Origin: a virus
Taxonomy: Duplodnaviria > Caudoviricetes
Direction: 5' to 3' (one strand)
DNA length: 64,000 nucleotides
Virus record (IMG/VR): IMGVR_UViG_2706795039_000001
Span: 1-64,000 of that record
Every line of letters begins with the position of its first letter. Within the stretch, counting starts at the first letter, position 1. The notes beneath the pieces were generated by a model. That model saw only the letters and a list, made by a program, of their open reading frames with translations, did not search any database and had not been told where the DNA came from. Below are positions 1 through 52,280 of this stretch, piece by piece. A program made the position numbers and the translations under genes.

Positions 1-31
1 ACGTGAGGGTGGGTCTATAGGTGGATGCAAG

Positions 32-46
32 TGATAATTAGTCTCA
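32..46. promoter_or_regulatory. Fur-box-like 7-1-7 inverted repeat
   Basis: TGATAAT-T-AGTCTCA, 2 mismatches to TGATAAT-N-ATTATCA. Confidence 0.45.
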
Positions 47-65
47 TTACCGCCCTACCCTATGA

Positions 66-101
66 GCTGTACAGGTATTTGCTACCTGTACAGCTTTTTT
101 A
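66..101. terminator. Intrinsic terminator-like hairpin downstream of dmp
   Basis: GCTGTACAGGTA/TACCTGTACAGC perfect stem with adjacent T run. Confidence 0.6.
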
Positions 102-132
102 TTGCTTTTAACCTAGAAGCTGTACAAACAGT

Positions 133-762
133 TTATAGGTTATCGACGAACTCAGGGAACAAAACGCAGTTCGCAGTGAGCGCATCCTCAATAAGCGACT
201 CGTACAGTTGAACGGTATCTTCTTCACCTTGGCGGTACATGTCGGATAGTTGCATCTCTAACACTTGGTTTAAGATTTTGGCATCAATCACCGTGATACC
301 CATGTTAGCCGCTTCACGTAGTACACCGTTATGATCATCAAATAGGTGGTACTCAGCATTGGGGAAGGATTTAAAAACATGCTCGAACCAAGCGCGCTTG
401 TATTCGGCATCGCCTAGCCCGTACAGCTTTTGTCCTTGTTCGATTCCGAATACATCGCACAAACGATCACGACTTAGGTGGATGTTAGCGCGTAATCCGT
501 TTTTGCGTAGGTAGTAGTAATCACTCTCCCCACAATGGCGAGCTGTCACAGTGATCACCGTTTCACCTTCTGCGATAAGCTTACGCATATACTCGGCGAG
601 AGGTAACAGGCTATCGCCCATTATCTTTTCATGTGTACAAGCTTCCGCTACATACTTAGCAAGGTCTAAGTCGCCATTAGGACGCTTGCAAGGATCAACA
701 CGGTGATCGGAATTGATAACGGTTTGGTCAAGATCAAACATGTAAACAATTTTCTTTTTCAT
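133..762 (-). CDS. dmp: Deoxynucleoside-5'-monophosphatase (HAD family), T5 pre-early
   Basis: HAD motif FDLDQT and C-terminal FDDH; first gene of the T5-like FST region. Confidence 0.8.
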   Translation of the reverse strand: MKKKIVYMFDLDQTVINSDHRVDPCKRPNGDLDLAKYVAEACTHEKIMGDSLLPLAEYMRKLIAEGETVITVTARHCGESDYYYLRKNGLRANIHLSRDRLCDVFGIEQGQKLYGLGDAEYKRAWFEHVFKSFPNAEYHLFDDHNGVLREAANMGITVIDAKILNQVLEMQLSDMYRQGEEDTVQLYESLIEDALTANCVLFPEFVDNL

Positions 763-820
763 TGGTACTTTCTCTCAATTAGTGAGGTTAGGGGTTAAAG
801 CGCCCGAAAGCGCTTTTCAG

Positions 821-836
821 TGTTTCACGTGGAACA
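821..836. promoter_or_regulatory. parS (chromosomal parS1-type) site
   Basis: TGTTTCACGTGGAACA, intergenic. Confidence 0.8.
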
Positions 837-1112
837 CTACTCAGTGAAGGTGATAGAGCAGTTGACCGGACGGGTTAAGACAATGTTGTCAGGTAGATCG
901 CCGTAGTTACCTGCGTAATCAATCTTACCGCTTGACGCATCGAATATAATCAATTCGTCTTCGTCTGCCGCAAATACAGCGAAAGCGTTGTTATCTTGGT
1001 AGATAGCTAGGTAAGCGCGATTGCTGCACTCACGGGGTACACCACTTGCGCAAGTGATTTGGATCGGAGTAAATCCTTTTTTAACATCAATAGTGTTTTC
1101 GACCTTAATCAT
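837..1112 (-). CDS. Hypothetical pre-early protein
   Basis: ORF with GGAG SD in the pre-early operon. Confidence 0.75.
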   Translation of the reverse strand: MIKVENTIDVKKGFTPIQITCASGVPRECSNRAYLAIYQDNNAFAVFAADEDELIIFDASSGKIDYAGNYGDLPDNIVLTRPVNCSITFTE

Positions 1113-1168
1113 TTCTTAACTCTCCTAATATCTCAGGGTTAAGGGCTAGGGACTACCTAGCCCGATTG

Positions 1169-1183
1169 ATTTACAGTGTAAAT
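1169..1183. promoter_or_regulatory. parS2 (Vibrio chromosome II-type) site
   Basis: ATTTACAGTGTAAAT matches NTTTACANTGTAAAN. Confidence 0.75.
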
Positions 1184-2896
1184 TTATGAACGGGTTAGCG
1201 CTTGCACTTTCAGCAATTGCACCGCACCATTAGGATGAATGATCATGTTAGCCTGATCCCAGCTAGAAGCACCGCCACGGTTATAACCTTGATCAAGCTT
1301 CGCCATAACGCCGACCACAAAGCAGAAGTCAAGGATCATAGGTGAGTGAGTATGACCTGAGCACATAAGAACTAGCCAACGGTTAAACAGTGCCGCCCCA
1401 CCGTGAGATCCGTTCTGGCCTTTGTGACCATGTTGCGATAGCTCAATACCGTACTGCGTGAAGCTTTGAGCCATTGAGCCGAAAACAATATTATCGGCCA
1501 TTGGTGGCAGGTCTAACATTGAGATCGCATCTTTGAAGGCTACTTCTAGCGCTGTTTTGTCGATACCAGAATCTAACGCCTCACAGATAAAATAGTTAAG
1601 GAGGTAGTATAGTTTGCTGTTTTCTGGATCGTGTTTTGGCGAGTAACTAGAATCATCAAGCCAGTTGTCGAGCGCTGAATTGTGATTAGATTCTACAATG
1701 TAGACCATATCAGTTAACTCTGCTAACTCGTTCAATTGGTCGATCACTTTGAATAGGTCATCAAGGACACTCGCACCGTTTATATGCATCTTGTACAAGT
1801 GTTTGCCTGACTTGCGGTTATGGTGGCTGCGAGTTTCGAAGTGTAGAATATCGTGAACAGCAATAACTACCGGCTTTTGACCAATATCGATCAAGTTGCT
1901 GATCATGTGGCAAGTGGTATCGAAAGCGTGTTCGTCTTGCATTTCACAATGCAAATCACCAAGCACCAAGCACGGACGGTTAGCCAGTAGGTTAGGCGTA
2001 GCTGCTACGTTGTACAGGTTGACGCCATCATCATTAAACACGTTGTTATCAATGAAAAGGGATAGAGAGCCGTCTACGCCTTCACGGAGGTTAGTGATAT
2101 TGATGAAATCGCCTTTAATCTCTACTAGAAGCGCTCCGAATACGTGAGCTTTTTCGGCGTCAACGCCTGCACCGCTTTGCAGGTAGTTGTATTTCGTACA
2201 ACTGCCAGTTGTCCACGCTTGGCTGATTGGCTGATTTGGTAGACGTGGGCGCGTTTTCATCTGCTGCTTAGGGCTTGCCAGTACCGTTGCCAGTTCGCCC
2301 ACACCTAGTTGCTCCGCTTTGTTAACTGGCAGTTTCACAGTAGGTAAAACGTGGGCACTAGCCATTAGGCGCACACCATACTCGAACCCTAACCATACAT
2401 CATCCTCGATTAGATAGGGCTTAACCTTCGCGTCGAAGTATGCTTTTTCGTCTTCTACCGCTGCACTGAAAGCCGCTTTATTGTAGTAGACAGGCATAAC
2501 AACCAATGCCGCATCGATCTGATTAGCTAGCGCTTCGAGCTTGTCAAAGAATGCCGCCGTTCCTGTATTGTTTTGCGCTGAGGTGATCAGGAAGCGAGAT
2601 CCGGTTATGGTTTCCATTGCTGCGATCCGCTTCTCGGCATCGCCTAGCATGGCGTCAGCTTCTAGCTTGTTGCTAGGCTGCTTTTTGTCTGCCGACTTCG
2701 CCTGTTTGATAGGGCGGTTTTCTTCTAGCCAGTTAACTAGATCCGCGCTAGTTAAGTCGTTCTGAGTTAGACCTAACTGGCCTAGAATCTTATCAGCAAC
2801 GGCTAATTTTGATTCACGCTTGAACTTGCCCCAGAAATTGTCGTCTTTTGCAAGGCGGATCAAGTTGTCGTGTTGTGCTTTAATAACTTTGTTCAT
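1184..2896 (-). CDS. A1: A1 protein (host DNA degradation / second-step transfer; metallophosphoesterase-like C-terminal half)
   Basis: ~570 aa from likely ATG 2896; motifs GDLH, HD, SNH, HGH, GHTH; position between dmp and A2. Confidence 0.85.
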   Translation of the reverse strand: MNKVIKAQHDNLIRLAKDDNFWGKFKRESKLAVADKILGQLGLTQNDLTSADLVNWLEENRPIKQAKSADKKQPSNKLEADAMLGDAEKRIAAMETITGSRFLITSAQNNTGTAAFFDKLEALANQIDAALVVMPVYYNKAAFSAAVEDEKAYFDAKVKPYLIEDDVWLGFEYGVRLMASAHVLPTVKLPVNKAEQLGVGELATVLASPKQQMKTRPRLPNQPISQAWTTGSCTKYNYLQSGAGVDAEKAHVFGALLVEIKGDFINITNLREGVDGSLSLFIDNNVFNDDGVNLYNVAATPNLLANRPCLVLGDLHCEMQDEHAFDTTCHMISNLIDIGQKPVVIAVHDILHFETRSHHNRKSGKHLYKMHINGASVLDDLFKVIDQLNELAELTDMVYIVESNHNSALDNWLDDSSYSPKHDPENSKLYYLLNYFICEALDSGIDKTALEVAFKDAISMLDLPPMADNIVFGSMAQSFTQYGIELSQHGHKGQNGSHGGAALFNRWLVLMCSGHTHSPMILDFCFVVGVMAKLDQGYNRGGASSWDQANMIIHPNGAVQLLKVQALTRS

Positions 2897-2933
2897 AATT
2901 ACAAGTCTCACTATTTAAGTGGTTAGGGTTTAG

Positions 2934-2949
2934 TGTTTCACGTGAAACA
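2934..2949. promoter_or_regulatory. parS (chromosomal parS1-type) site, perfect palindrome
   Basis: TGTTTCACGTGAAACA. Confidence 0.85.
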
Positions 2950-2953
2950 CTTG

Positions 2954-2968
2954 ATTTACAGTGTAAAC
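2954..2968. promoter_or_regulatory. parS2-type site
   Basis: ATTTACAGTGTAAAC. Confidence 0.75.
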
Positions 2969-2982
2969 TGATACCAGAAACA

Positions 2983-2997
2983 ATTTACACTGTAAAT
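2983..2997. promoter_or_regulatory. parS2-type site
   Basis: ATTTACACTGTAAAT. Confidence 0.75.
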
Positions 2998-3032
2998 CAC
3001 TGGCAGGGCTAACCCTGCCAGTGAACCGGATG

Positions 3033-3524
3033 TTAGGCTACTTGTTCGCTGAGAGCTTCGCCTAAGTCGTCAAAGTCAACGCCATGATAGGCCATAAAGC
3101 GCTGTACTAGCTCGACCTTGCTGATAGTGTAGCCCTTAGCCGCAGATCCCATAACGTCAGTGACCCCGAAAGCCTTAGTTACGGCGTCAAGGCTGTCAAC
3201 CTTGGAATTTTTGAAGCTGTCTAGAACTTCTTCGTCTAAGCCTAGGCAATTAGACAGGGCACGCAGGTAATGCTCTTTGCGCAACTGGTTGCCTTTTGGT
3301 AGGCTTGCCGTCACTTCTGGCTTGACGTAGACGCCCAAAATCGCCAATTTACCACGGACTGACTTGTCAGAAGGCGCACCAATTTTCTTAGCTAGGCTAG
3401 TAAGAAAATCGTTATCGGCTGCCGCTGCCGCCCCTTCCGCTTCGAGCTTCTCTTTGTAAGCTGCGACCACAAGCGCGGTGTTCTCTTCTGACCATACTTT
3501 TGCTTTTTTATCTTGTGTAGACAT
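3033..3524 (-). CDS. A2: A2 DNA-binding protein (second-step transfer)
   Basis: Likely start ATG 3524 after GAGG SD; WSEENT...SVRGKL...GVYVK and RKEHY motifs as in T5 A2. Confidence 0.8.
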   Translation of the reverse strand: MSTQDKKAKVWSEENTALVVAAYKEKLEAEGAAAAADNDFLTSLAKKIGAPSDKSVRGKLAILGVYVKPEVTASLPKGNQLRKEHYLRALSNCLGLDEEVLDSFKNSKVDSLDAVTKAFGVTDVMGSAAKGYTISKVELVQRFMAYHGVDFDDLGEALSEQVA

Positions 3525-3613
3525 AGTTTCATATCCTCTATTAGATAGGTTAGTGTTGTTGAGAGTGATTCTCAAATAAGGCATTCTATAGAATGCCTTA
3601 TTGGATACCACTA

Positions 3614-3910
3614 TTAATTAACGGTAGTACCTTTGTTTTCATCCGTCCAACGTGATTTTACACGGGCTACATCTGACAGGGGATAAGAGTAAACGCAAAT
3701 ATCACCGCTATTGTCAAGCGCTTTCGCTACGACGTCCACTGTACCTTCGCTGATATGATAATCATATGGCGCGTCAAAGGTTTGGCCTTCTGTATCGAAG
3801 GTTGGAGACAATTCCAGACCACGGGTCTTTGCCGCAGCTTTGATTTGCTCGCGCGCTTCTGGCTTAAACAGGATAGAGACAGAGACTAGGATCTTGTTGC
3901 GCATATTCAT
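3614..3910 (-). CDS. Pre-early hypothetical protein
   Basis: ORF with GAGG SD upstream of A2; YSYPLSDVARVK C-terminus. Confidence 0.75.
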   Translation of the reverse strand: MNMRNKILVSVSILFKPEAREQIKAAAKTRGLELSPTFDTEGQTFDAPYDYHISEGTVDVVAKALDNSGDICVYSYPLSDVARVKSRWTDENKGTTVN

Positions 3911-4038
3911 GTTGTATTTCCTCTATTGATTAGGTTAGTTGAGAATGTTTCTCAAATAGGGCACTGTCGTTAATCAATGCCCTAACGGATAACACTAGGA
4001 ACGTAAGCAATGAGTCACAAAGCAACATCTTTCCAAAT

Positions 4039-4085
4039 TGTTAAAGAACGGTGGGAAGAGTAACGGATAACTAAACTACTGTCAA
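4039..4085 (-). promoter_or_regulatory. Pre-early sigma70 promoter followed by boxA
   Basis: TTGACA(4085-4080)-17 bp-TACTCT, then CGTTCTTTAACA (4050-4039). Confidence 0.65.
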
Positions 4086-4295
4086 CCACTTTTTTCTACC
4101 CTATCGAGCTAGGCCGTTGCCCCTCTCGATGTAAGAAATATTAAGATAACCGGACTAACTATTCTAATCGTTTAAATCTATTAGTTAAGTCGATTTTGCA
4201 AGGTTTTGCCTATCACCAATTTTTGGCCTTAATTATAAGGAACGGGCGCACGCGATAACATAAAAACAAAGTCCTGTCAAACATTTTTAAAAATA

Positions 4296-4311
4296 CTGTA
4301 TAAATATACAT
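4296..4311. promoter_or_regulatory. LexA (SOS) box, 1 mismatch
   Basis: CTGTATAAATATACAT. Confidence 0.55.
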
Positions 4312-4414
4312 GCCCCTAAAACGCTCTAGGAAGCGTTTTAAGCGATTTTAGGGCTAAGCCCTACCTTAGCATTAAAAACATTATTTGGCGATTTTACAAT
4401 TTTTTAACAAAAAT

Positions 4415-4430
4415 TGGCACGCTCCTTGCT
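4415..4430 (+). promoter_or_regulatory. sigma54 (-24/-12) motif
   Basis: TGGCACGCTCCTTGCT = TGGCACG-N4-TTGC. Confidence 0.6.
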
Positions 4431-4530
4431 AGAAGAAAATGGTTATATCTTATAGCTTTTTGTTATTTGAAAAGGTATTAAAAGGGGGTATAGTTACCTT
4501 ACTTGAGAACGGGCTAGGGAGCTAACCAAA

Positions 4531-4602
4531 ATGGAAGAGATCATTTTATCAGGGGTATTCTTGATTGCTGTATTTATCGGGCTATACCCTCATTTTAAAT
4601 AA
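4531..4602 (+). CDS. 23-aa hydrophobic peptide
   Basis: GGAG SD; MEEIILSGVFLIAVFIGLYPHFK; below the ORF-track cutoff. Confidence 0.5.
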   Translation: MEEIILSGVFLIAVFIGLYPHFK

Positions 4603-4614
4603 GAGGTTGACACT

Positions 4615-4734
4615 ATGTATAGAGTCGTCTATTATTGCGGAGCTTGGCAGGTAACACACCGAGCAACAGGAAATACCACTGTTAGGGTATCTTTACATGA
4701 TGCCCTATCTAGTATCATTGACCAATTGAATTGA
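4615..4734 (+). CDS. 39-aa hypothetical protein
   Basis: GAGG SD; MYRVVYYCGAWQVTHR... Confidence 0.55.
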   Translation: MYRVVYYCGAWQVTHRATGNTTVRVSLHDALSSIIDQLN

Positions 4735-4745
4735 GGTTTTAAATC

Positions 4746-5105
4746 ATGGCTAAAGTAAGCTTCACCAAACAAACCACTTCCTACACTACTGATGAGATAG
4801 TGCAACTAGTTGCGGATCGCTTCGATGGTGGTGATAACATCATCCGCATGGCTGCTGTATGGGAGAACGAAACGATCCTCTTGCTGGCTGACAGCACTGA
4901 CGCGGTACTGATCAACCTAGACGACACTCAGCCAGTTTTTAGCGTTAGCTCTGACTGTCTGACCTCGCAGGTTAGAAACTCAACGGTTTTGGGGGATGAC
5001 CGTAAGCATTATATTTGGGAAGCTTTCAATGAGTCATACCTAGGCAATTGTCCGCTAACTTGGCAGCCGGTCGAGCTAGTAGCTTGTGAATTGCGTTATA
5101 TTTAA
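4746..5105 (+). CDS. Hypothetical pre-early protein
   Basis: ORF with GAGG SD. Confidence 0.75.
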   Translation: MAKVSFTKQTTSYTTDEIVQLVADRFDGGDNIIRMAAVWENETILLLADSTDAVLINLDDTQPVFSVSSDCLTSQVRNSTVLGDDRKHYIWEAFNESYLGNCPLTWQPVELVACELRYI

Positions 5106-5119
5106 GGGAGTGCAACAAG

Positions 5120-5560
5120 ATGCATAACTTAGCTAACATCTTAGCAGATCTAGGCTATAAACCTAGTATCACATCCGTGGTGGTTGAGGTCGAGTATTCA
5201 ACTGGCTACTGTCAGGAAGACAGAACCGAACTAGATCACCTACCCGTGGAAGATGTAGAGCTACATCCAGACCACGGATCGGATGTGATCACCGTTAGCC
5301 CTTCCGGTGCAGTGTACCTACAGGAGACAGCTAATAGTCACGCTGAATCATACGGACACTATGTAGGCTCTCCCGATGAGGACGAGGAAGACGGGGAAGA
5401 GTACGAAGGCGGCGACTGGCACGCCAAACTGTACACCAATTCAGAGACGCCCAACGTTGTGGGTGATAGCCTATGGCATACGCTAGAACATCTACCTAAA
5501 GAGGAGTCAGGTCTGGCCTGTGACCTCTGGCTTGTGCTAGGGACAGAAATTGTGGATTAG
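5120..5560 (+). CDS. Acidic hypothetical pre-early protein
   Basis: ORF with SD; very D/E-rich. Confidence 0.75.
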   Translation: MHNLANILADLGYKPSITSVVVEVEYSTGYCQEDRTELDHLPVEDVELHPDHGSDVITVSPSGAVYLQETANSHAESYGHYVGSPDEDEEDGEEYEGGDWHAKLYTNSETPNVVGDSLWHTLEHLPKEESGLACDLWLVLGTEIVD

Positions 5561-5576
5561 GTCACAAAAATAATGC

Positions 5577-5605
5577 TTGCGTTATTTTTGGTAATGACCT
5601 ATTAT
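5577..5605 (+). promoter_or_regulatory. sigma70 promoter
   Basis: TTGCGT-17 bp-TATTAT. Confidence 0.5.
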
Positions 5606-5661
5606 TCGTCTTGTGGGATGCAATACCGCATCCCACTAACCACCGCTAGGAGATAGCGAGA

Positions 5662-6159
5662 ATGAGTAAGATTAAAGTTGGTGATCTATGTTTTGTTCGT
5701 GGCCGCTGCAAAGACAGCAACGGCAAGCTAGTAACCGTGTTACGCCGAGAGTTTTCGGAATTTTACGTTAGTTCGCCCGACCTATACGCAGGGGAGGAAC
5801 TACATTGCTATGAAAACGAACTGGTTTTAGCTAATTGGGCGGTCTGGACTAAGGAACCACCAATCAGTGACTTCTACAAATGCGATCAGACCACCGCCGC
5901 AAACGTGCGTCTTTTAAAGGCTGTTACCTTCCTGAAAAATCAGGAACTACAGTTTCCGATTCTTAACACTATTAGGGGTTATGATGTAGTAGAACAGCAC
6001 TTTAAAAATAAGGTTGTCACCTACGCTGCCGCTTTTGTCGAAGGTGCGGCAAATGCTGGGGGACTGTACTATGACGCTAGGCTTCAACTTCTAACGTGGT
6101 ACGCCATTTTTAACGGTGCGGTATTCCGTAACGGTTATTTAGTGGGGTTAGGGGAATGA
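5662..6159 (+). CDS. Hypothetical pre-early protein
   Basis: AGGAG SD; N-terminal KVGD SH3-like start. Confidence 0.75.
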   Translation: MSKIKVGDLCFVRGRCKDSNGKLVTVLRREFSEFYVSSPDLYAGEELHCYENELVLANWAVWTKEPPISDFYKCDQTTAANVRLLKAVTFLKNQELQFPILNTIRGYDVVEQHFKNKVVTYAAAFVEGAANAGGLYYDARLQLLTWYAIFNGAVFRNGYLVGLGE

Positions 6160-6536
6160 AAACAATTATCATTCAGTACCTAGAAGCGATCCTTGCCAAT
6201 CGTGCAACGATTGAACAGATCGACGCTGATATTTTTAGCGGTAAGCTTGACTACGACCAATACCTGACCCAATTGGGAGGGGATTTCTTCTTGGATCGTG
6301 ACGTTGGTCTATGTAATAATATAGGGCTACAGCTCACGGAGGAACATCATTTTACAAACCTGTTTTATTGGTTTGTAAAATCCCACGACTTAGATCCTCA
6401 CTATCCGGTGTATCATCCTAGCGGTAATCGCTTCGCCTATACTAAGTCATGTTTGCCAAAATGGTCGGGCGAGTACGGGAATACCCGCTTCCAATTTGTT
6501 GAGAATTTTCTCAATTGGTTAAAGGAGTGTGCTTAA
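6156..6536 (+). CDS. Hypothetical pre-early protein
   Basis: ATGA-coupled ORF. Confidence 0.75.
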   Translation: MKTIIIQYLEAILANRATIEQIDADIFSGKLDYDQYLTQLGGDFFLDRDVGLCNNIGLQLTEEHHFTNLFYWFVKSHDLDPHYPVYHPSGNRFAYTKSCLPKWSGEYGNTRFQFVENFLNWLKECA

Positions 6537-6748
6537 TGAGCTTGCTAGAAGGTCTACAGGATGTAGCGGAAGCGCTGCGCGAGGGCGCTTACATCCACGC
6601 CCAACAAGATCTAGAATCATTGGTCTGTATGGCCAATGATCAAACAATCCGTCAATGGTTGGTCAACGCTATCACTAGTGCAAGCGTTGGCGATTGTTCA
6701 ACAGCGCTAACCTATGTTAGCGCTGCTATACGTAAGCTAGGGGGTTAA
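6536..6748 (+). CDS. Hypothetical pre-early protein
   Basis: TAATG coupling; start ATG 6536 with AAGGAG SD. Confidence 0.7.
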   Translation: MSLLEGLQDVAEALREGAYIHAQQDLESLVCMANDQTIRQWLVNAITSASVGDCSTALTYVSAAIRKLGG

Positions 6749-6750
6749 GT

Positions 6751-6996
6751 ATGCTTACTAACCGTATTATTAGCGCCACCGCCAACGCATATCTAGATGC
6801 CGTGGCACGTGAAGTGGATCAGGGGCAGTATCACATAAAGTATCGTGGTGTCTTTGTTGACGATATAATGAAACTTGAGGATCACAAATACGTGATCTAT
6901 CTAGCCTACCTGAACGACGAAGAGATCCGAACTGAAGGGATGACAGTCGGGGAGCTGGTTAGCTTAATGGGCGACTTCTCAGTGGTGATAGAGTGA
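6751..6996 (+). CDS. Hypothetical pre-early protein
   Basis: ORF in operon. Confidence 0.7.
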   Translation: MLTNRIISATANAYLDAVAREVDQGQYHIKYRGVFVDDIMKLEDHKYVIYLAYLNDEEIRTEGMTVGELVSLMGDFSVVIE

Positions 6997-7097
6997 GTTG
7001 GCTACTCTTCACTAGCGACCACGGCCTAACTAGCTTCTTCTATATCTGGTTAGGTTTGATGGTGGTTGTGGGGATTTATGAAAGTGTTACAGGGTAA
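6993..7097 (+). CDS. 34-aa membrane peptide
   Basis: GTGA-coupled; hydrophobic FFYIWLGLMVVVGIY. Confidence 0.45.
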   Translation: MSWLLFTSDHGLTSFFYIWLGLMVVVGIYESVTG

Positions 7098-7117
7098 CGG
7101 AAGTTACCCTGTTTTTT
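7090..7117 (+). terminator. Intrinsic terminator of the rightward pre-early operon
   Basis: CAGGGTAAC-GGAA-GTTACCCTG + T6. Confidence 0.8.
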
Positions 7118-7228
7118 GCCCACTACCTAGAAAGCCCTTACTTTAGTACCTGCCAAACACTAAAACCTCTCACAAGCGCTTACAGCGCGTTTTAGGGGGT
7201 ATCAGAATATCCATCTACCCAATAACCA

Positions 7229-7244
7229 CTGTATAAATATACAG
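7229..7244. promoter_or_regulatory. Perfect LexA box
   Basis: CTGTATAAATATACAG; 1-mismatch copy at 7300-7315. Confidence 0.7.
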
Positions 7245-7266
7245 TGGTATAACCCTGTTAACTAAT

Positions 7267-7325
7267 TGTGGATAACCTTGTATAGAGCGTTTTAGAGGCA
7301 TGTATAAATATACAGTTGTGGATAA
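7267..7325 (-). promoter_or_regulatory. Two perfect DnaA boxes
   Basis: TGTGGATAA (=TTATCCACA) at 7267-7275 and 7317-7325. Confidence 0.75.
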
Positions 7326-7335
7326 CTTTTCGCTA

Positions 7336-7351
7336 TGCAATATCTGTGCCA
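7336..7351 (-). promoter_or_regulatory. sigma54 motif
   Basis: Reverse strand TGGCACAGATATTGCA. Confidence 0.55.
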
Positions 7352-7362
7352 TATTTTATTCT

Positions 7363-7489
7363 ATTAGCTAGAACTAATAAAGGTAAGGCTAAATTAGCTA
7401 GAACTAATAAAGGTAAGGCTAAATTAGCTAGAACTAATAAAGGTAAGGCTAAATTAGCTAGAACTAATAAAGGTAAGGCTAAATTAGCT
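7363..7489. repeat. 30-bp tandem repeat x4 plus partial
   Basis: ATTAGCTAGAACTAATAAAGGTAAGGCTAA. Confidence 0.95.
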
Positions 7490-7604
7490 GCGCGGGATAC
7501 CCGTCCCGCGCCAGTGCGAAACCGATGTGCAAAACCGACCCCATTTTACGTGTGCGCCAGTGCAAAACCGAGGTGCAAATCCGATTTTAAATTTTCTGGG
7601 GGTG

Positions 7605-7851
7605 TAGGTGCAAAACCGATATAGGTGCAAAACCGATATAGGTGCAAAACCGATATAGGTGCAAAACTGATATAGGTGCAAAACTGACACGGGGGTCGCG
7701 TCCAAGTTAGCCGCTTGCGGCGTGTAGGGACGCTAGCTGGGGATGTAGGTGCAAAACCGATATAGGTGCAAAACTGATATAGGTGCAAAACTGACACGGG
7801 GGTCGCGTCCAAGTTAGCCGCTTGCGGCGTGTAGGGACGCTAGCTGGGGAT
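7605..7851. repeat. 17-bp iteron-like repeats and a 107-bp-period duplication (injection-stop-like region)
   Basis: TAGGTGCAAAACYGATA x5 then x3; 7639-7744 repeated at 7746-7851. Confidence 0.9.
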
Positions 7852-8123
7852 ACTAGTTTGGGACGCTGTTTAGAGATGCTAGTTGGGGGACGCTAGTTGG
7901 TGGACGCTAGTTTGGGGACGCTAGGGCGGTTTTATTTGTATGGAAGGTTTAGGCAGTCTTGGTGAGGTTTGGGGCAGACTCATTTTATCTCTGCGCCCCC
8001 GGCCATTCGGGCCGGAGCCAGGATTGAAATTTTTTGGAGTTTTTGGGGGAATTTGCTGGTTTTGGTGGGTTGGGGGCAGGGTAGCAGAACTTAAAAATAC
8101 TTTTTTGCTGTTAGGTGGGGTTA

Positions 8124-8770: not shown

Positions 8771-9133
8771 TCAAGCAATTTCTAGTATAGTTTTTATTGC
8801 TTCCTTGGTGTAGGCAATAGCTTGGCGGAAATCGCTGAAGCTTTGCACGGACTTGTGAAGAAACTTGGCTTGTTCTTTTGTAAGTTCTTTCACTACTAGG
8901 TGCTTAACTGTCTTATTGAATGTTTTGTAATACTTAGGGTTTTTTGAATACGTGCTGAACCAGCGGAGTTCGCCATTTTCTTCCGTAGTTAGAATAAAGA
9001 AGTAATGGTCTCTCTTACCCATATTTGTTAGGGCGAATAGTCGATTTATTGTATTACGCTTGATACAGGATTCGAATTCTAGTTTGGGGACTTCGTAGAG
9101 TCCCCCTAAATACCTGAACTTAGTTAATTGCAT
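8771..9133 (-). CDS. Hypothetical early protein (basic)
   Basis: ORF. Confidence 0.7.
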   Translation of the reverse strand: MQLTKFRYLGGLYEVPKLEFESCIKRNTINRLFALTNMGKRDHYFFILTTEENGELRWFSTYSKNPKYYKTFNKTVKHLVVKELTKEQAKFLHKSVQSFSDFRQAIAYTKEAIKTILEIA

Positions 9134-20343: not shown

Positions 20344-20925
20344 TTAATCACAAGAGCTGGAAGAAGAACTAGATGAGCTTCCAGAGTCATAAGAGCTAGA
20401 GCTGCTAGATTCGTGTGAATCAGAGCAGTCACTTCGATCCTTGTACGAGTAATGGCTATGGGAGTGAATCAATTCTTGTTCTATCACATTCCCTCTGTAG
20501 TCGTGACGACGGTGTGCTCCCCCACTACTACGCCCTGAAGAGGTGCTGCGACGTGCAAACATATCGCTTCGCAAACCGCCCCCATCAGGCTGTCGTCTTG
20601 CTGCTGCAGCGTCCCTGCGCTTCTGCTCCAGTTTTTCACGCCAAACAGCTTCAGGGATGACAGAGTACGTTTTAGTTTTACTACAGTACTCTGTCCTGGC
20701 TCCCATACCTAGGTCAACTCCAACAAGTCCTATCGCTGGAGTTACTTCCCGTTTACCCTGACGAGGTCTATCAATGGACACTTGAAAGTAAAACGCCCAA
20801 GTTTCTGTGCTTGAATCAAAATACTGCCACTCGCCTTCTGCGAGCCTTACTTGGGTAATGTTCTCTTGCTTGAAGACATGAGCGCTACCAAAAAGCTGCA
20901 ACATTAATTTTCTAAACATGTTCAT
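20344..20925 (-). CDS. Hypothetical protein with Ser-rich tail
   Basis: C-terminal SSSSSYDSGSSSSSSSSCD. Confidence 0.7.
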   Translation of the reverse strand: MNMFRKLMLQLFGSAHVFKQENITQVRLAEGEWQYFDSSTETWAFYFQVSIDRPRQGKREVTPAIGLVGVDLGMGARTEYCSKTKTYSVIPEAVWREKLEQKRRDAAAARRQPDGGGLRSDMFARRSTSSGRSSGGAHRRHDYRGNVIEQELIHSHSHYSYKDRSDCSDSHESSSSSSYDSGSSSSSSSSSCD

Positions 20926-50745: not shown

Positions 50746-51249
50746 CTACTTACCTCTCATTAGGACTAAGTTAGGCACCCAACAGAAGTTATCCTCTGTG
50801 AATACCTTAATAAATAATTCTGGGTTTGGCCCGAAGTAGGTAAAACACTGACCCCTACTGCCCTTACCCTTAGGTGTTAAATCTGGTTGTAAAAAGGATA
50901 TACGCCCATTAGTATATGCTTGGACTCCGCCTTGGAGAGCTATGTTCCATTGGGTATCTGTCCCAGAGTTAGTCAGCATAATGCCCTCAGTCATGACACC
51001 ACGCTTATACTCTTCTGCGAAATATTTTGTGAACTTCTTAATAAGCGCTGCTGAGTAAGGTGGGTTACACCACACCTTACCAAGCCACGGGTAGTTTAAC
51101 CCATTCTGTTCTTTTGTATAGTAGGTTTTAGCCCTTACTATAGTGTTCGCAGTAGGGTTAGATGCAGGGTCTAGGTCTATTTCCCCTAGTACCCTGCGAA
51201 CCTTGTCCATAATGAACTCTGGTGTGTACCACTCATCATTACTGTTCAT
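50746..51249 (-). CDS. Phage DNA N6-adenine methyltransferase
   Basis: DEWYTP, DLDPAS, NGL...W, WCNPPYS, GRISF; ATGA-coupled start 51249. Confidence 0.85.
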   Translation of the reverse strand: MNSNDEWYTPEFIMDKVRRVLGEIDLDPASNPTANTIVRAKTYYTKEQNGLNYPWLGKVWCNPPYSAALIKKFTKYFAEEYKRGVMTEGIMLTNSGTDTQWNIALQGGVQAYTNGRISFLQPDLTPKGKGSRGQCFTYFGPNPELFIKVFTEDNFCWVPNLVLMRGK

Positions 51250-52280
51250 AGGTGCTTGACCCTCTTCTGCATTTCTGCCTGTTTTCCCGCGTTGAATGGT
51301 CTGGCATCCGGGTTTCCTAAGTAACCACAAACCCTGCGAGTGACAGAGCAGCTTTCTTTGTCGTTATTACCACACTTAGGGCACTTGAAACCTTCCGAGG
51401 TGCATAGGAACTCTCCTTTATACCCGCACTTAAAGCACTCGTCTATTGGGGTGTTAGTACCATAATACGGTACTTGATAGTACGCGTAATTCCACACATC
51501 TTCCAATGCTTCTATGTTATTAATCATAGAAGGGAATTCCCCGTAACATATGTGGCCGCCCGCTGAGTAGGGTACGAACTGCGCTTCAAAATCGATCTTC
51601 TCGTAAGGTGTTACTTTCTTGGCTACGTCTAGGTGGAATGAGTTGGTCAGGTATCCTTTATCTGTGACACCTTCAAACTCCCCATACTCACGAACAATGG
51701 CTTTGCAGAAGCGATGACATAGTGACTCACTAGGAGTACCATATACAGAGTAGTTAATACCCTCTGCCTCTTTCCACTCACGTACCTTAGCATCTAGGAA
51801 TTTCAGAATATCTAAGCAAAACTCCTGCTTTTCTTCCGCATCATAGGTGTGAATTAGAGAACCCAGCATTGCATTTGCTGCTTCCTCTAGACCGATATAC
51901 CCTAGGGAGATAGAAGCTCCTCGCGCAATAAGGTGAGGCAGCACCAAGTCGTCTGGCTTCAAGCGTAATCCTAGGGCTCCTTCCATGTACATAATTGGAG
52001 CTGATTTAGCTGTGACTGTTGAGAGCCTTTCAATACGATATTGAAGCGCTCTGTGAGCAACTTCACAGTATTTATCCAGCAATTCCCAAAATTTATCGTA
52101 ATCACCTTGAGCTTCCAGTACGTATTTTGGTATATTAAGAGAAACTACGCCTAGGTTGTTGCGTCCCGCGTAATACTCGTTCCCTTCCGCATCGTATGCA
52201 GGGGATAGGAAGGACCTGCAACCCATAGGGGCTTTCACGCCACCAGTAATCTCTAATGTTTTGTGGTAGTTCAAAATATC
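51246..52280 (-). CDS. nrdD: Anaerobic RNR, exon 2
   Basis: DILN.., MGCRS, NLGVVSLN, TP.ESLC, TNSFH, CxxC..CxxC, RVCGYLG. Confidence 0.9.
   Translation of the reverse strand, partial: DILNYHKTLEITGGVKAPMGCRSFLSPAYDAEGNEYYAGRNNLGVVSLNIPKYVLEAQGDYDKFWELLDKYCEVAHRALQYRIERLSTVTAKSAPIMYMEGALGLRLKPDDLVLPHLIARGASISLGYIGLEEAANAMLGSLIHTYDAEEKQEFCLDILKFLDAKVREWKEAEGINYSVYGTPSESLCHRFCKAIVREYGEFEGVTDKGYLTNSFHLDVAKKVTPYEKIDFEAQFVPYSAGGHICYGEFPSMINNIEALEDVWNYAYYQVPYYGTNTPIDECFKCGYKGEFLCTSEGFKCPKCGNNDKESCSVTRRVCGYLGNPDARPFNAGKQAEMQKRVKHL

Follow-up and report, generated by a model that had tools for sequence, protein, structure and literature searches.

The window analyzed here, a stretch of 64,000 nucleotides, comes from a virus record of 116,138 bp (IMGVR_UViG_2706795039_000001) and starts at the physical left end of the genome. 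The virus is a T5-like phage: the first 5 kb of the window are 95.8% identical to the Vibrio cholerae phages JSF10 and JSF12, a lineage placed in Demerecviridae, Ermolyevavirinae, Jesfedecavirus. The spacers of its pre-early operon, which contains the dmp, A1 and A2 genes, hold five palindromes. Two of them are of the parS1 type, the site of ParB1, and three are of the parS2 type, presumably the site of ParB2 on chromosome 2 of vibrios. By their sequence, these motifs are the two centromere types of the host. The five palindromes are probably selected docking sites for the host proteins ParB1 and ParB2. The predicted partner of the two parS1-type sites is ParB1, and that of the three parS2-type sites is ParB2.

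The five sites and their counterparts in host genomes

All five sites, which had been listed in a preliminary description of this DNA, were found again at the same coordinates, and all are located in spacers of the dmp-A1-A2 operon. The parS1-type site at 821..836, TGTTTCACGTGGAACA, was identified in a motif scan and has one mismatch to the universal parS. It is positioned in the spacer between dmp and a gene for a 91-residue protein. The second parS1-type site, TGTTTCACGTGAAACA (2934..2949), also from the motif scan, is a perfect universal parS that lies 38 bp upstream of the A1 initiation codon. The first parS2-type site, ATTTACAGTGTAAAT (1169..1183), directly follows the A1 stop codon upstream of the 91-residue protein gene, has an exact core and is kept in JSF10. 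The other two form a pair upstream of A1. The proximal member, ATTTACAGTGTAAAC (2954..2968), has an exact core whose columns are invariant in eight of eight aligned spacers, and the distal member, ATTTACACTGTAAAT (2983..2997), recognized by its exact core and by the alignment, begins directly after the hairpin that follows A2. The exact core, TTTACANTGTAAA, begins at 1170, 2955 and 2984. The sites at 2934-2997 together occupy a 64-bp span, which is 38-101 bp upstream of the A1 ATG (2896).

The test motif for the universal parS was the 16-bp palindrome TGTTNCACGTGAAACA. Allowing up to three mismatches, it was found three times in the window, compared to 0.28 matches expected, and none of 100 shuffled sequences reached three. 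The third match, at 20632, has three mismatches and was judged to be noise. The exact parS2 core was also found three times, compared to 0.01 expected, and again none of 100 shuffles reached this number. The preliminary description had named a similar frequency in shuffled sequence as a finding that would speak against the sites; the parS1-type sites and the exact parS2 cores are far above chance. No enrichment is seen when the parS2 core is allowed up to two mismatches (9 matches compared to 6.2 expected, with 23 of 100 shuffles reaching 9), and therefore only exact parS2 copies are counted. In a scan of the whole genome the only further copies were the counterparts of these five sites in the right terminal repeat, at an offset of +108,369, resulting in ten sites per full genome. 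The predicted confinement of the sites to the terminal repeats thus held, as did the earlier statement that there are no copies elsewhere: outside the repeats there is a single parS2-like word with one mismatch (21242).

Profile and phmmer searches agree with the earlier remark that the phage lacks parA and parB. No match to ParB_N exceeded the cut-off, and the single sub-threshold match (12.8 bits) is in an open reading frame that is glutaredoxin/thioredoxin-like by Pfam and adjoins the gene for the small subunit of ribonucleotide reductase. A phmmer search of 951 six-frame open reading frames with a Vibrio ParA2 and ParB2 gave no match at E<=10. With no cognate parAB on the phage, orphan sites could use only a protein of the host.

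The three parS2-type sites of the window match exactly the consensus NTTTACANTGTAAAN, which is taken to be the ParB2 site of Vibrio chromosome 2. The letters of this consensus are reportedly given in a 2007 paper by Yamaichi, and the motif was checked empirically. The 15-mer of the phage was scanned in 185,579 genomes, one per species, and 80 loci were among the matches listed. Thirteen of these 80 loci belong to Vibrionaceae (7 Vibrio, 4 Photobacterium, 1 Aliivibrio and 1 Salinivibrio), and among the matches listed all eight loci with two or more parS2 copies are from this family. Five Vibrionaceae genomes contain 8, 11, 8, 14 and 8 exact parS2 cores, compared to 1, 0, 0, 0 and 2 for the reversed-pattern controls. 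The cores are mostly clustered on one contig, and 38 of the 49 have G or C as their center base. In the V. cincinnatiensis genome a type-Ia parA, itself followed by a plasmid-type parB (TIGR00180 at 84.5 bits, with a cut-off of 58.45), has a parS2 copy about 150 bp upstream of it. The host parS2 sites have the same flanks as those of the phage, a purine before the site and T after it, and close pairs occur in host genomes too.

The same five genomes contain two to five parS1 sites each, whereas the control gave none. The variant present at 821 of the window, TGTTTCACGTGGAACA, has two copies in an Aliivibrio fischeri genome, within its parS1 cluster, and the parS1 variant of JSF10, TGTTTCATGTGAAACA, is likewise a natural chromosomal one, found in the clusters of two Vibrio genomes. 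The available text of a report on V. cholerae (PMC3141006) states that parS1 of this organism is the same as the universal parS of Bacillus subtilis, that parS2 occurs in vibrios and photobacteria only, and that there are 10 consensus parS2 sites in V. cholerae, of which 9 lie on chromosome II. The claimed match of the phage motifs to the consensus sites of ParB1 and Vibrio ParB2 is thus supported both by the Vibrionaceae genome scans and by what is accessible of this report.

Occurrence in other T5-like phages

Ten other records were scanned over their whole length: eight Vibrio T5-like genomes, E. coli T5_ev219 and Shewanella KASIA. These scans took in JSF10 but not JSF12, which was compared by megablast only. 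Exact parS2 cores are present in all eight Vibrio T5-like genomes. JSF10 has three cores, PVo5 and an IMG/VR genome of 111,506 bp (G006) have four each, ValS_X1 has two, VCPH and 70E37.1 have one each, and Cilsick and GRLPWR have four and two, respectively, per repeat copy. The core is absent from E. coli T5_ev219 and Shewanella KASIA, and the reversed-pattern control gave no match in any of the ten records. It had been predicted that Vibrio-infecting members would carry the sites and that E. coli T5 would not, and this is what was found (8/8 compared to 0). KASIA was considered as a T5-type relative and rejected, as its A1 homolog is in a replication module and there is no T5-type repeat; it has no sites.

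Every site in the Vibrio phages is located in a spacer of the A2-A1-dmp cluster, with one to four sites per repeat. When the window is included, a site or a pair of sites is found directly upstream of A1 in seven of nine Vibrio T5-like genomes. In GRLPWR the A1-proximal pair has been lost and a pair precedes the gene before A1, and in 70E37.1 the parS2 site follows A1. An alignment of eight spacers contains 30 invariant columns, which are the two 15-bp parS2 sites plus two flanking bases. The adjacent GC-rich hairpin is kept as a structure, but its sequence is different in every phage. That the sequence of the sites is invariant while the hairpins turn over argues for selection on the sequence, as would be the case for the protein site of an unchanging host binder. 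The A1 proteins of the site-bearing phages are only 35-57% identical.

The parS1 type is not general in T5-like phages. Among the ten other records, which are named or of the isolate type, sites with up to two mismatches were found only in JSF10, which has two, and the reversed control scored once, in 70E37.1. Both JSF10 sites (6821-6836 and 8969-8984 of locus L005) have the same central change on the operon strand, from CACGTG to CACATG, and the rest of the region differs by about 4% between JSF10 and the window. Avoidance of a restriction site was tried as the cause of this change and was rejected: another CACGTG is kept at the JSF10 locus, and the genome of the window has 10 copies compared to 13.7 expected.

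A survey of IMG/VR comprised 80 A1-encoding loci with a total of 928,245 bases. Eight of these loci, from six contigs, hold 21 parS2 cores, which lie upstream of A1 at distances of no more than about 550 bp. Five others, from uncultured relatives, hold parS1-type sites just downstream of A1, in the A1-dmp spacers, where the reversed control gave none: TGTTCCACGTGGAACA is present twice in each of L279, L280 and L281, and TGTTCCACGTGAAACC once in each of L275 and L286. Judging from these sequences, the two centromere types look interchangeable at the A1-dmp position. The remaining 67 loci have neither type, and most have an A1 identity of 31-34%, which is typical of enterobacterial relatives of T5. 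The perfect universal parS occurs in at least 119 IMG/VR stretches, and none of the 80 loci among the matches listed has A1, A2, dmp or a parS2 core, so that no relatives were added from these loci. Paired copies of TTTACANTGTAAA were found in 20 IMG/VR stretches, of which 8 are T5-like and 12 are not.

Docking of host ParB proteins and alternative explanations

The docking interpretation is preferred because of the exact match to the centromeres, the invariance of the sites, their restriction to a single place, their absence from T5 and the interchangeability of the two types. Such a pattern fits conserved readers supplied by the host and is not what would be expected of co-evolving phage operators, parts of promoters or RNA stems. 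By analogy with T5, the terminal repeat would enter the cell first and be transcribed by the host polymerase, and dimers of host ParB would meet the sites on arrival. ParB proteins load at parS as clamps and then spread. On the phage DNA the clamps could spread over the ~8-kb segment, and after full entry loading might take place at both genome ends.

If ParB is bound, its main effect is perhaps regulation of A1 and dmp expression in cis, a suggestion put forward tentatively: a local roadblock or silencing complex would tune read-through into the two genes. The sites are always found in the spacers around A1 and dmp, usually 1-3 nucleotides past a terminator-like hairpin, whereas the repeat's large non-coding regions have none, and this placement favors a local role of that kind. 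ParB2 loaded at parS2 can silence neighboring promoters, according to the accessible part of PMC3688505. The injected DNA might also be positioned or anchored in this way, as a secondary effect or as an alternative one.

Several observations do not sit easily with the docking interpretation. The number of sites varies from one to four, and GRLPWR has no pair before A1. E. coli T5 manages without the sites, which hence are not essential to the T5 life style. Both parS1-type sites of JSF10 share the central change, for which general avoidance of CACGTG does not account. In RNA, an 18-bp stem can form between the two parS2 sites upstream of A1, and part of the conservation of the pair could be at the RNA level. 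The cis-regulatory view takes position as its sole basis, and shared ancestry could lead to the same position. Finally, 5 of the 12 stretches that have paired TTTACANTGTAAA but are not T5-like have a G+C content of 59-62% and are unlikely to be vibrio viruses, which implies that other proteins can use this palindrome.

A further possibility, itself improbable, is that the parS sites act as a timer, sensing when the host chromosomes are destroyed. Intact host DNA would hold most of the ParB1 and ParB2 on the two chromosomes. Degradation dependent on A1 would free these proteins, and the pool would collapse onto the phage centromeres, the only ones left. Spreading over the 8-kb first-injected segment would then shut off A1 and dmp, perhaps licensing or organizing the entry of the remaining genome, and the presence of both centromere types would allow the phage to read the loss of both chromosomes. 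A1-dependent shut-off of the pre-early genes is a feature of T5.

Host ParB might instead be used as in phage phi29, the segregation machinery positioning or partitioning the phage genome and gene regulation not being the point. The phage DNA would be brought, for example, to the pole via ParB1-ParA1 or to mid-cell via ParB2-ParA2, which could serve persistence in slow, starved or dividing cells (a carrier state) or pairing of the genome ends. Five host parS sites are present in virulent phi29, which relies on Spo0J for entrapment in the spore, as described in the available text of PMC2731898, and the Vibrio phage has its ten sites distributed over both terminal repeats, with both centromere types present and substituting for each other in relatives. 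T5-type phages, however, degrade the host chromosome early (bioRxiv 10.1101/866236, available text), which would leave little nucleoid for ParA, and the repeat showed no replication or persistence module. Sites would also be expected in the roomy non-coding regions, whereas in nine of nine Vibrio T5-like genomes all of them are in A2-A1-dmp spacers. This use of the sites is considered unlikely, but it is the main alternative to a local role.

The palindromes might also be operators that only look like centromeres and are bound by a protein of the phage, such as A2 or one of the small pre-early products. A2 is annotated as DNA-binding, T5 has other palindromes at the same places, and the equivalent place ahead of A2, as well as ahead of a gene for a 98-residue protein, is taken by a third conserved palindrome, TTGAGAA-N3-TTCTCAA. 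The third palindrome is not enriched in host genomes, which indicates that phage-specific sites do exist in these spacers. Two operators would nevertheless have to match both centromeres by coincidence at every specified base (12/12 and 16/16). A protein and its site that co-evolve should drift, as A1 has done (35-57% identity), yet the sites are invariant. Furthermore, the only pre-early proteins common to all site-bearing phages, A1, A2 and dmp, are present in the site-less T5 as well, and the phage has no ParB-like protein. Such operators are very improbable. Secondary structure of RNA or DNA, such as RNase III-type stems or terminators, or linkers for the recombinational shuffling of cassettes, is the least credible of these explanations, although it has points in its favor. 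The A1 leader folds as three consecutive hairpins (-57.3 kcal/mol, z -8.5), of which the parS2 pair is the 18-bp stem and parS1 an 8-bp stem, and the center bases are complementary, G with C, in every phage pair seen. In L280 the parS1 core is within a 24-bp perfect palindrome (GCTT-parS-AAGC) that is followed by a run of T, and PVo5 has duplicated the same 65-bp cassette before two genes. A structure needs no particular sequence, however, and the neighboring hairpins turn over freely but the parS sites do not. Single sites (1169 in the window, and those of VCPH and 70E37.1) cannot form a stable stem, and the match to the host centromeres is left unexplained.

A role as promoters was also considered and rejected. 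A consensus scan found no sigma-70-like promoter on the coding strand at the parS1 and parS2 sites, and hand checks of the -35/-10 spacing failed. The sole coding-strand match in these spacers (778-749, 9/12) is downstream of the 821 site, and strong sigma-70-like candidates are found only in the divergent non-coding region at 4160-4640. In addition, the insertion of parS1 between the parS2 pair and the ribosome-binding region alters the spacing, which argues against a promoter role that depends on it.

Host parS on a virulent phage without ParB is already known from phi29. Like the phage of the window, phi29 is virulent, has no ParB of its own and carries several copies of the host centromere, and host ParB acts on its genome; its copies are of the universal parS only, and their function is tied to sporulation in the form of spore entrapment (PMC2731898, available text). 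Host-type parS copies on a phage without parB are found here as well, but the host is non-sporulating, the centromeres are of two types, including that of the secondary chromosome, and they are located in a T5-type repeat beside A1 and dmp. The DnaA boxes of T5-like phages (Davison, bioRxiv 10.1101/866236), as far as the accessible text goes, are comparable in being conserved sites on first-injected DNA to which a host chromosome-maintenance protein is proposed to bind. Two DnaA boxes of the consensus type are present in the phage of the window too, at the inner end of its repeat. Those of the T5-like phages differ from the parS sites in that the protein is DnaA, not ParB, and in that they are in the untranslated iss region and not in the A1/dmp spacers. 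Neither parS nor Vibrio occurs in the accessible text of that preprint.

The V. cholerae centromeres with their ParAB1 and ParAB2 systems (PMC3141006 and PMC3688505, each in its available part) correspond to the phage sites in having identical sequences, the natural variants, the flanks, a G/C center and close pairs. The phage copies are orphans, without adjacent parAB or an origin, and a role in stable inheritance is not expected of them. Centromere sites on a phage genome are also found in the ParABS modules of phage-plasmids (P1, N15 and P1-like elements of Vibrio), but these have parA and parB genes of their own and a plasmid life style, whereas the phage of the window encodes neither and belongs to a lytic family.

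The preliminary description had claimed that no such sites were described for T5-like phages. This stands insofar as a literature search, with most subscription journals and supplements outside its scope, found no paper on parS in T5-like or lytic Vibrio phages; it has to be qualified by the precedents of parS in phi29 and of the DnaA boxes in T5-like phages. Two features appear to be new: parS2 is conserved in lytic Vibrio phages of several genera, and in the V. cholerae lineage it is combined with parS1. If the docking interpretation is true, the use of a host centromere protein by a virulent phage, for which phi29 is the single known case, would be extended to Gram-negative, non-sporulating hosts, and the Vibrio phages would be the first example with the centromere of a secondary chromosome, kept across several genera of T5-like phages. 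ParB1 and ParB2 are suggested as host factors for these phages. The sites offer a concrete, mutable cis element for two old questions about T5, namely the pre-early shut-off and the handling of the first-injected DNA, and the parS2 motif could mark Vibrionaceae hosts for uncultured T5-like contigs.

The terminal repeat and the pre-early operon

The left direct terminal repeat (1..7769), the T5-type pre-early and presumed first-step-transfer DNA, is defined by prefix-suffix identity. The opening 7,769 bases recur without any difference at the right end of the genome, where the second copy occupies positions 108370-116138, and IMG/VR classifies the record as having direct terminal repeats. A long direct repeat with dmp, A1 and A2 at the left end is the arrangement of T5. 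Presumably, by homology to T5, the repeat is the DNA that is injected first, in a two-step entry with a pause.

The genes at the left end are on the minus strand, and their order is the pre-early order of T5, in agreement with JSF10, T5 and others. The outermost gene of the repeat (133..762) is a homolog of dmp, a deoxynucleoside-5'-monophosphatase, as judged from the JSF10 annotation and from tblastn to the dmp genes of relatives. The pre-early gene for the 91-residue protein (837..1112), an open reading frame supported by comparison with JSF10, has no assigned function, and family searches gave no match for its product. The homolog of the DNA transfer protein A1 (1184..2896) is 98% identical to A1 of JSF10 and 32-57% identical to A1 of other T5-like phages. 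At higher coordinates lie the homolog of the DNA-binding protein A2 (3033..3524), assigned by annotation and tblastn comparison, and the gene for the 98-residue protein (3614..3910), an open reading frame also supported by comparison with JSF10, which is the first gene of the leftward operon. The GC-rich terminator-like hairpin after A2 is located at 2998..3023 on the same strand; its sequence differs in every relative, but the hairpin itself is kept there.

Every pre-early spacer has a common layout, consisting of a hairpin, one or more palindromes, a TTAACC-like box 25-35 nucleotides before the ATG, and a ribosome-binding site. This layout was seen in the spacers at 763-836, 1113-1183, 2897-3032 and 3525-3613 of the window, and also in T5_ev219 (L152). 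In T5 the box reads TTAATCCC, and the same places in the spacers hold other palindromes, such as GGCAATATTGCC before A1. The third palindrome of the window, TTGAGA(G/A)-N3-TTCTCAA, is located at 3559-3575, before A2, and at 3939-3955, before the gene for the 98-residue protein. It is kept in JSF10, and PVo5, Cilsick and GRLPWR have it before A2 in the form CTGAGAAAYACTCTCA. This palindrome was tried as a further host site and was rejected: five Vibrionaceae genomes contain no exact copy of TTGAGAA-N3-TTCTCAA, and matches with one mismatch are near the control level. The 24-bp palindrome of L280 is found at 7679-7702 and at 7974-7997, before a small gene and before dmp, and a C/T-rich run follows it.

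Pairs of parS2-type sites are also carried by contigs with a G+C content of 35-45% that are not T5-like. One IMG/VR contig (L149, 41,135 bp), which is HK022/HK97-like, has a parS2-type pair at 7777-7822 that immediately follows the terL stop codon and precedes the prohead protease gene. It has no near match among named phages, and its TerL is only ~43% identical to those of enterobacterial phages.

The inner end of the repeat (7180-7800 of the window) resembles an iss-type control region. Its two consensus DnaA boxes, at 7267-7275 and 7317-7325, are on the minus strand; their number is below the eight described for relatives of T5. Each of the two boxes is next to a palindrome that resembles an SOS box. 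Of these palindromes, a perfect CTGT-N8-ACAG is located at 7229-7244, and imperfect copies are found at 4296 and 7300. A 34-nucleotide inverted repeat has its arms at 4295-4328 and 7283-7316. A 30-bp tandem array occupies 7363-7500, and an array of the 17-bp unit GGTGCAAAACYGATATA spans the boundary of the repeat at 7769. The phage encodes a methyltransferase of the Dam family (50746-51330), and the terminal repeat has 46 GATC sites (5.9 per kb), a density 4.7 times that of the unique region at 7770-108369 (128 sites, 1.27 per kb).

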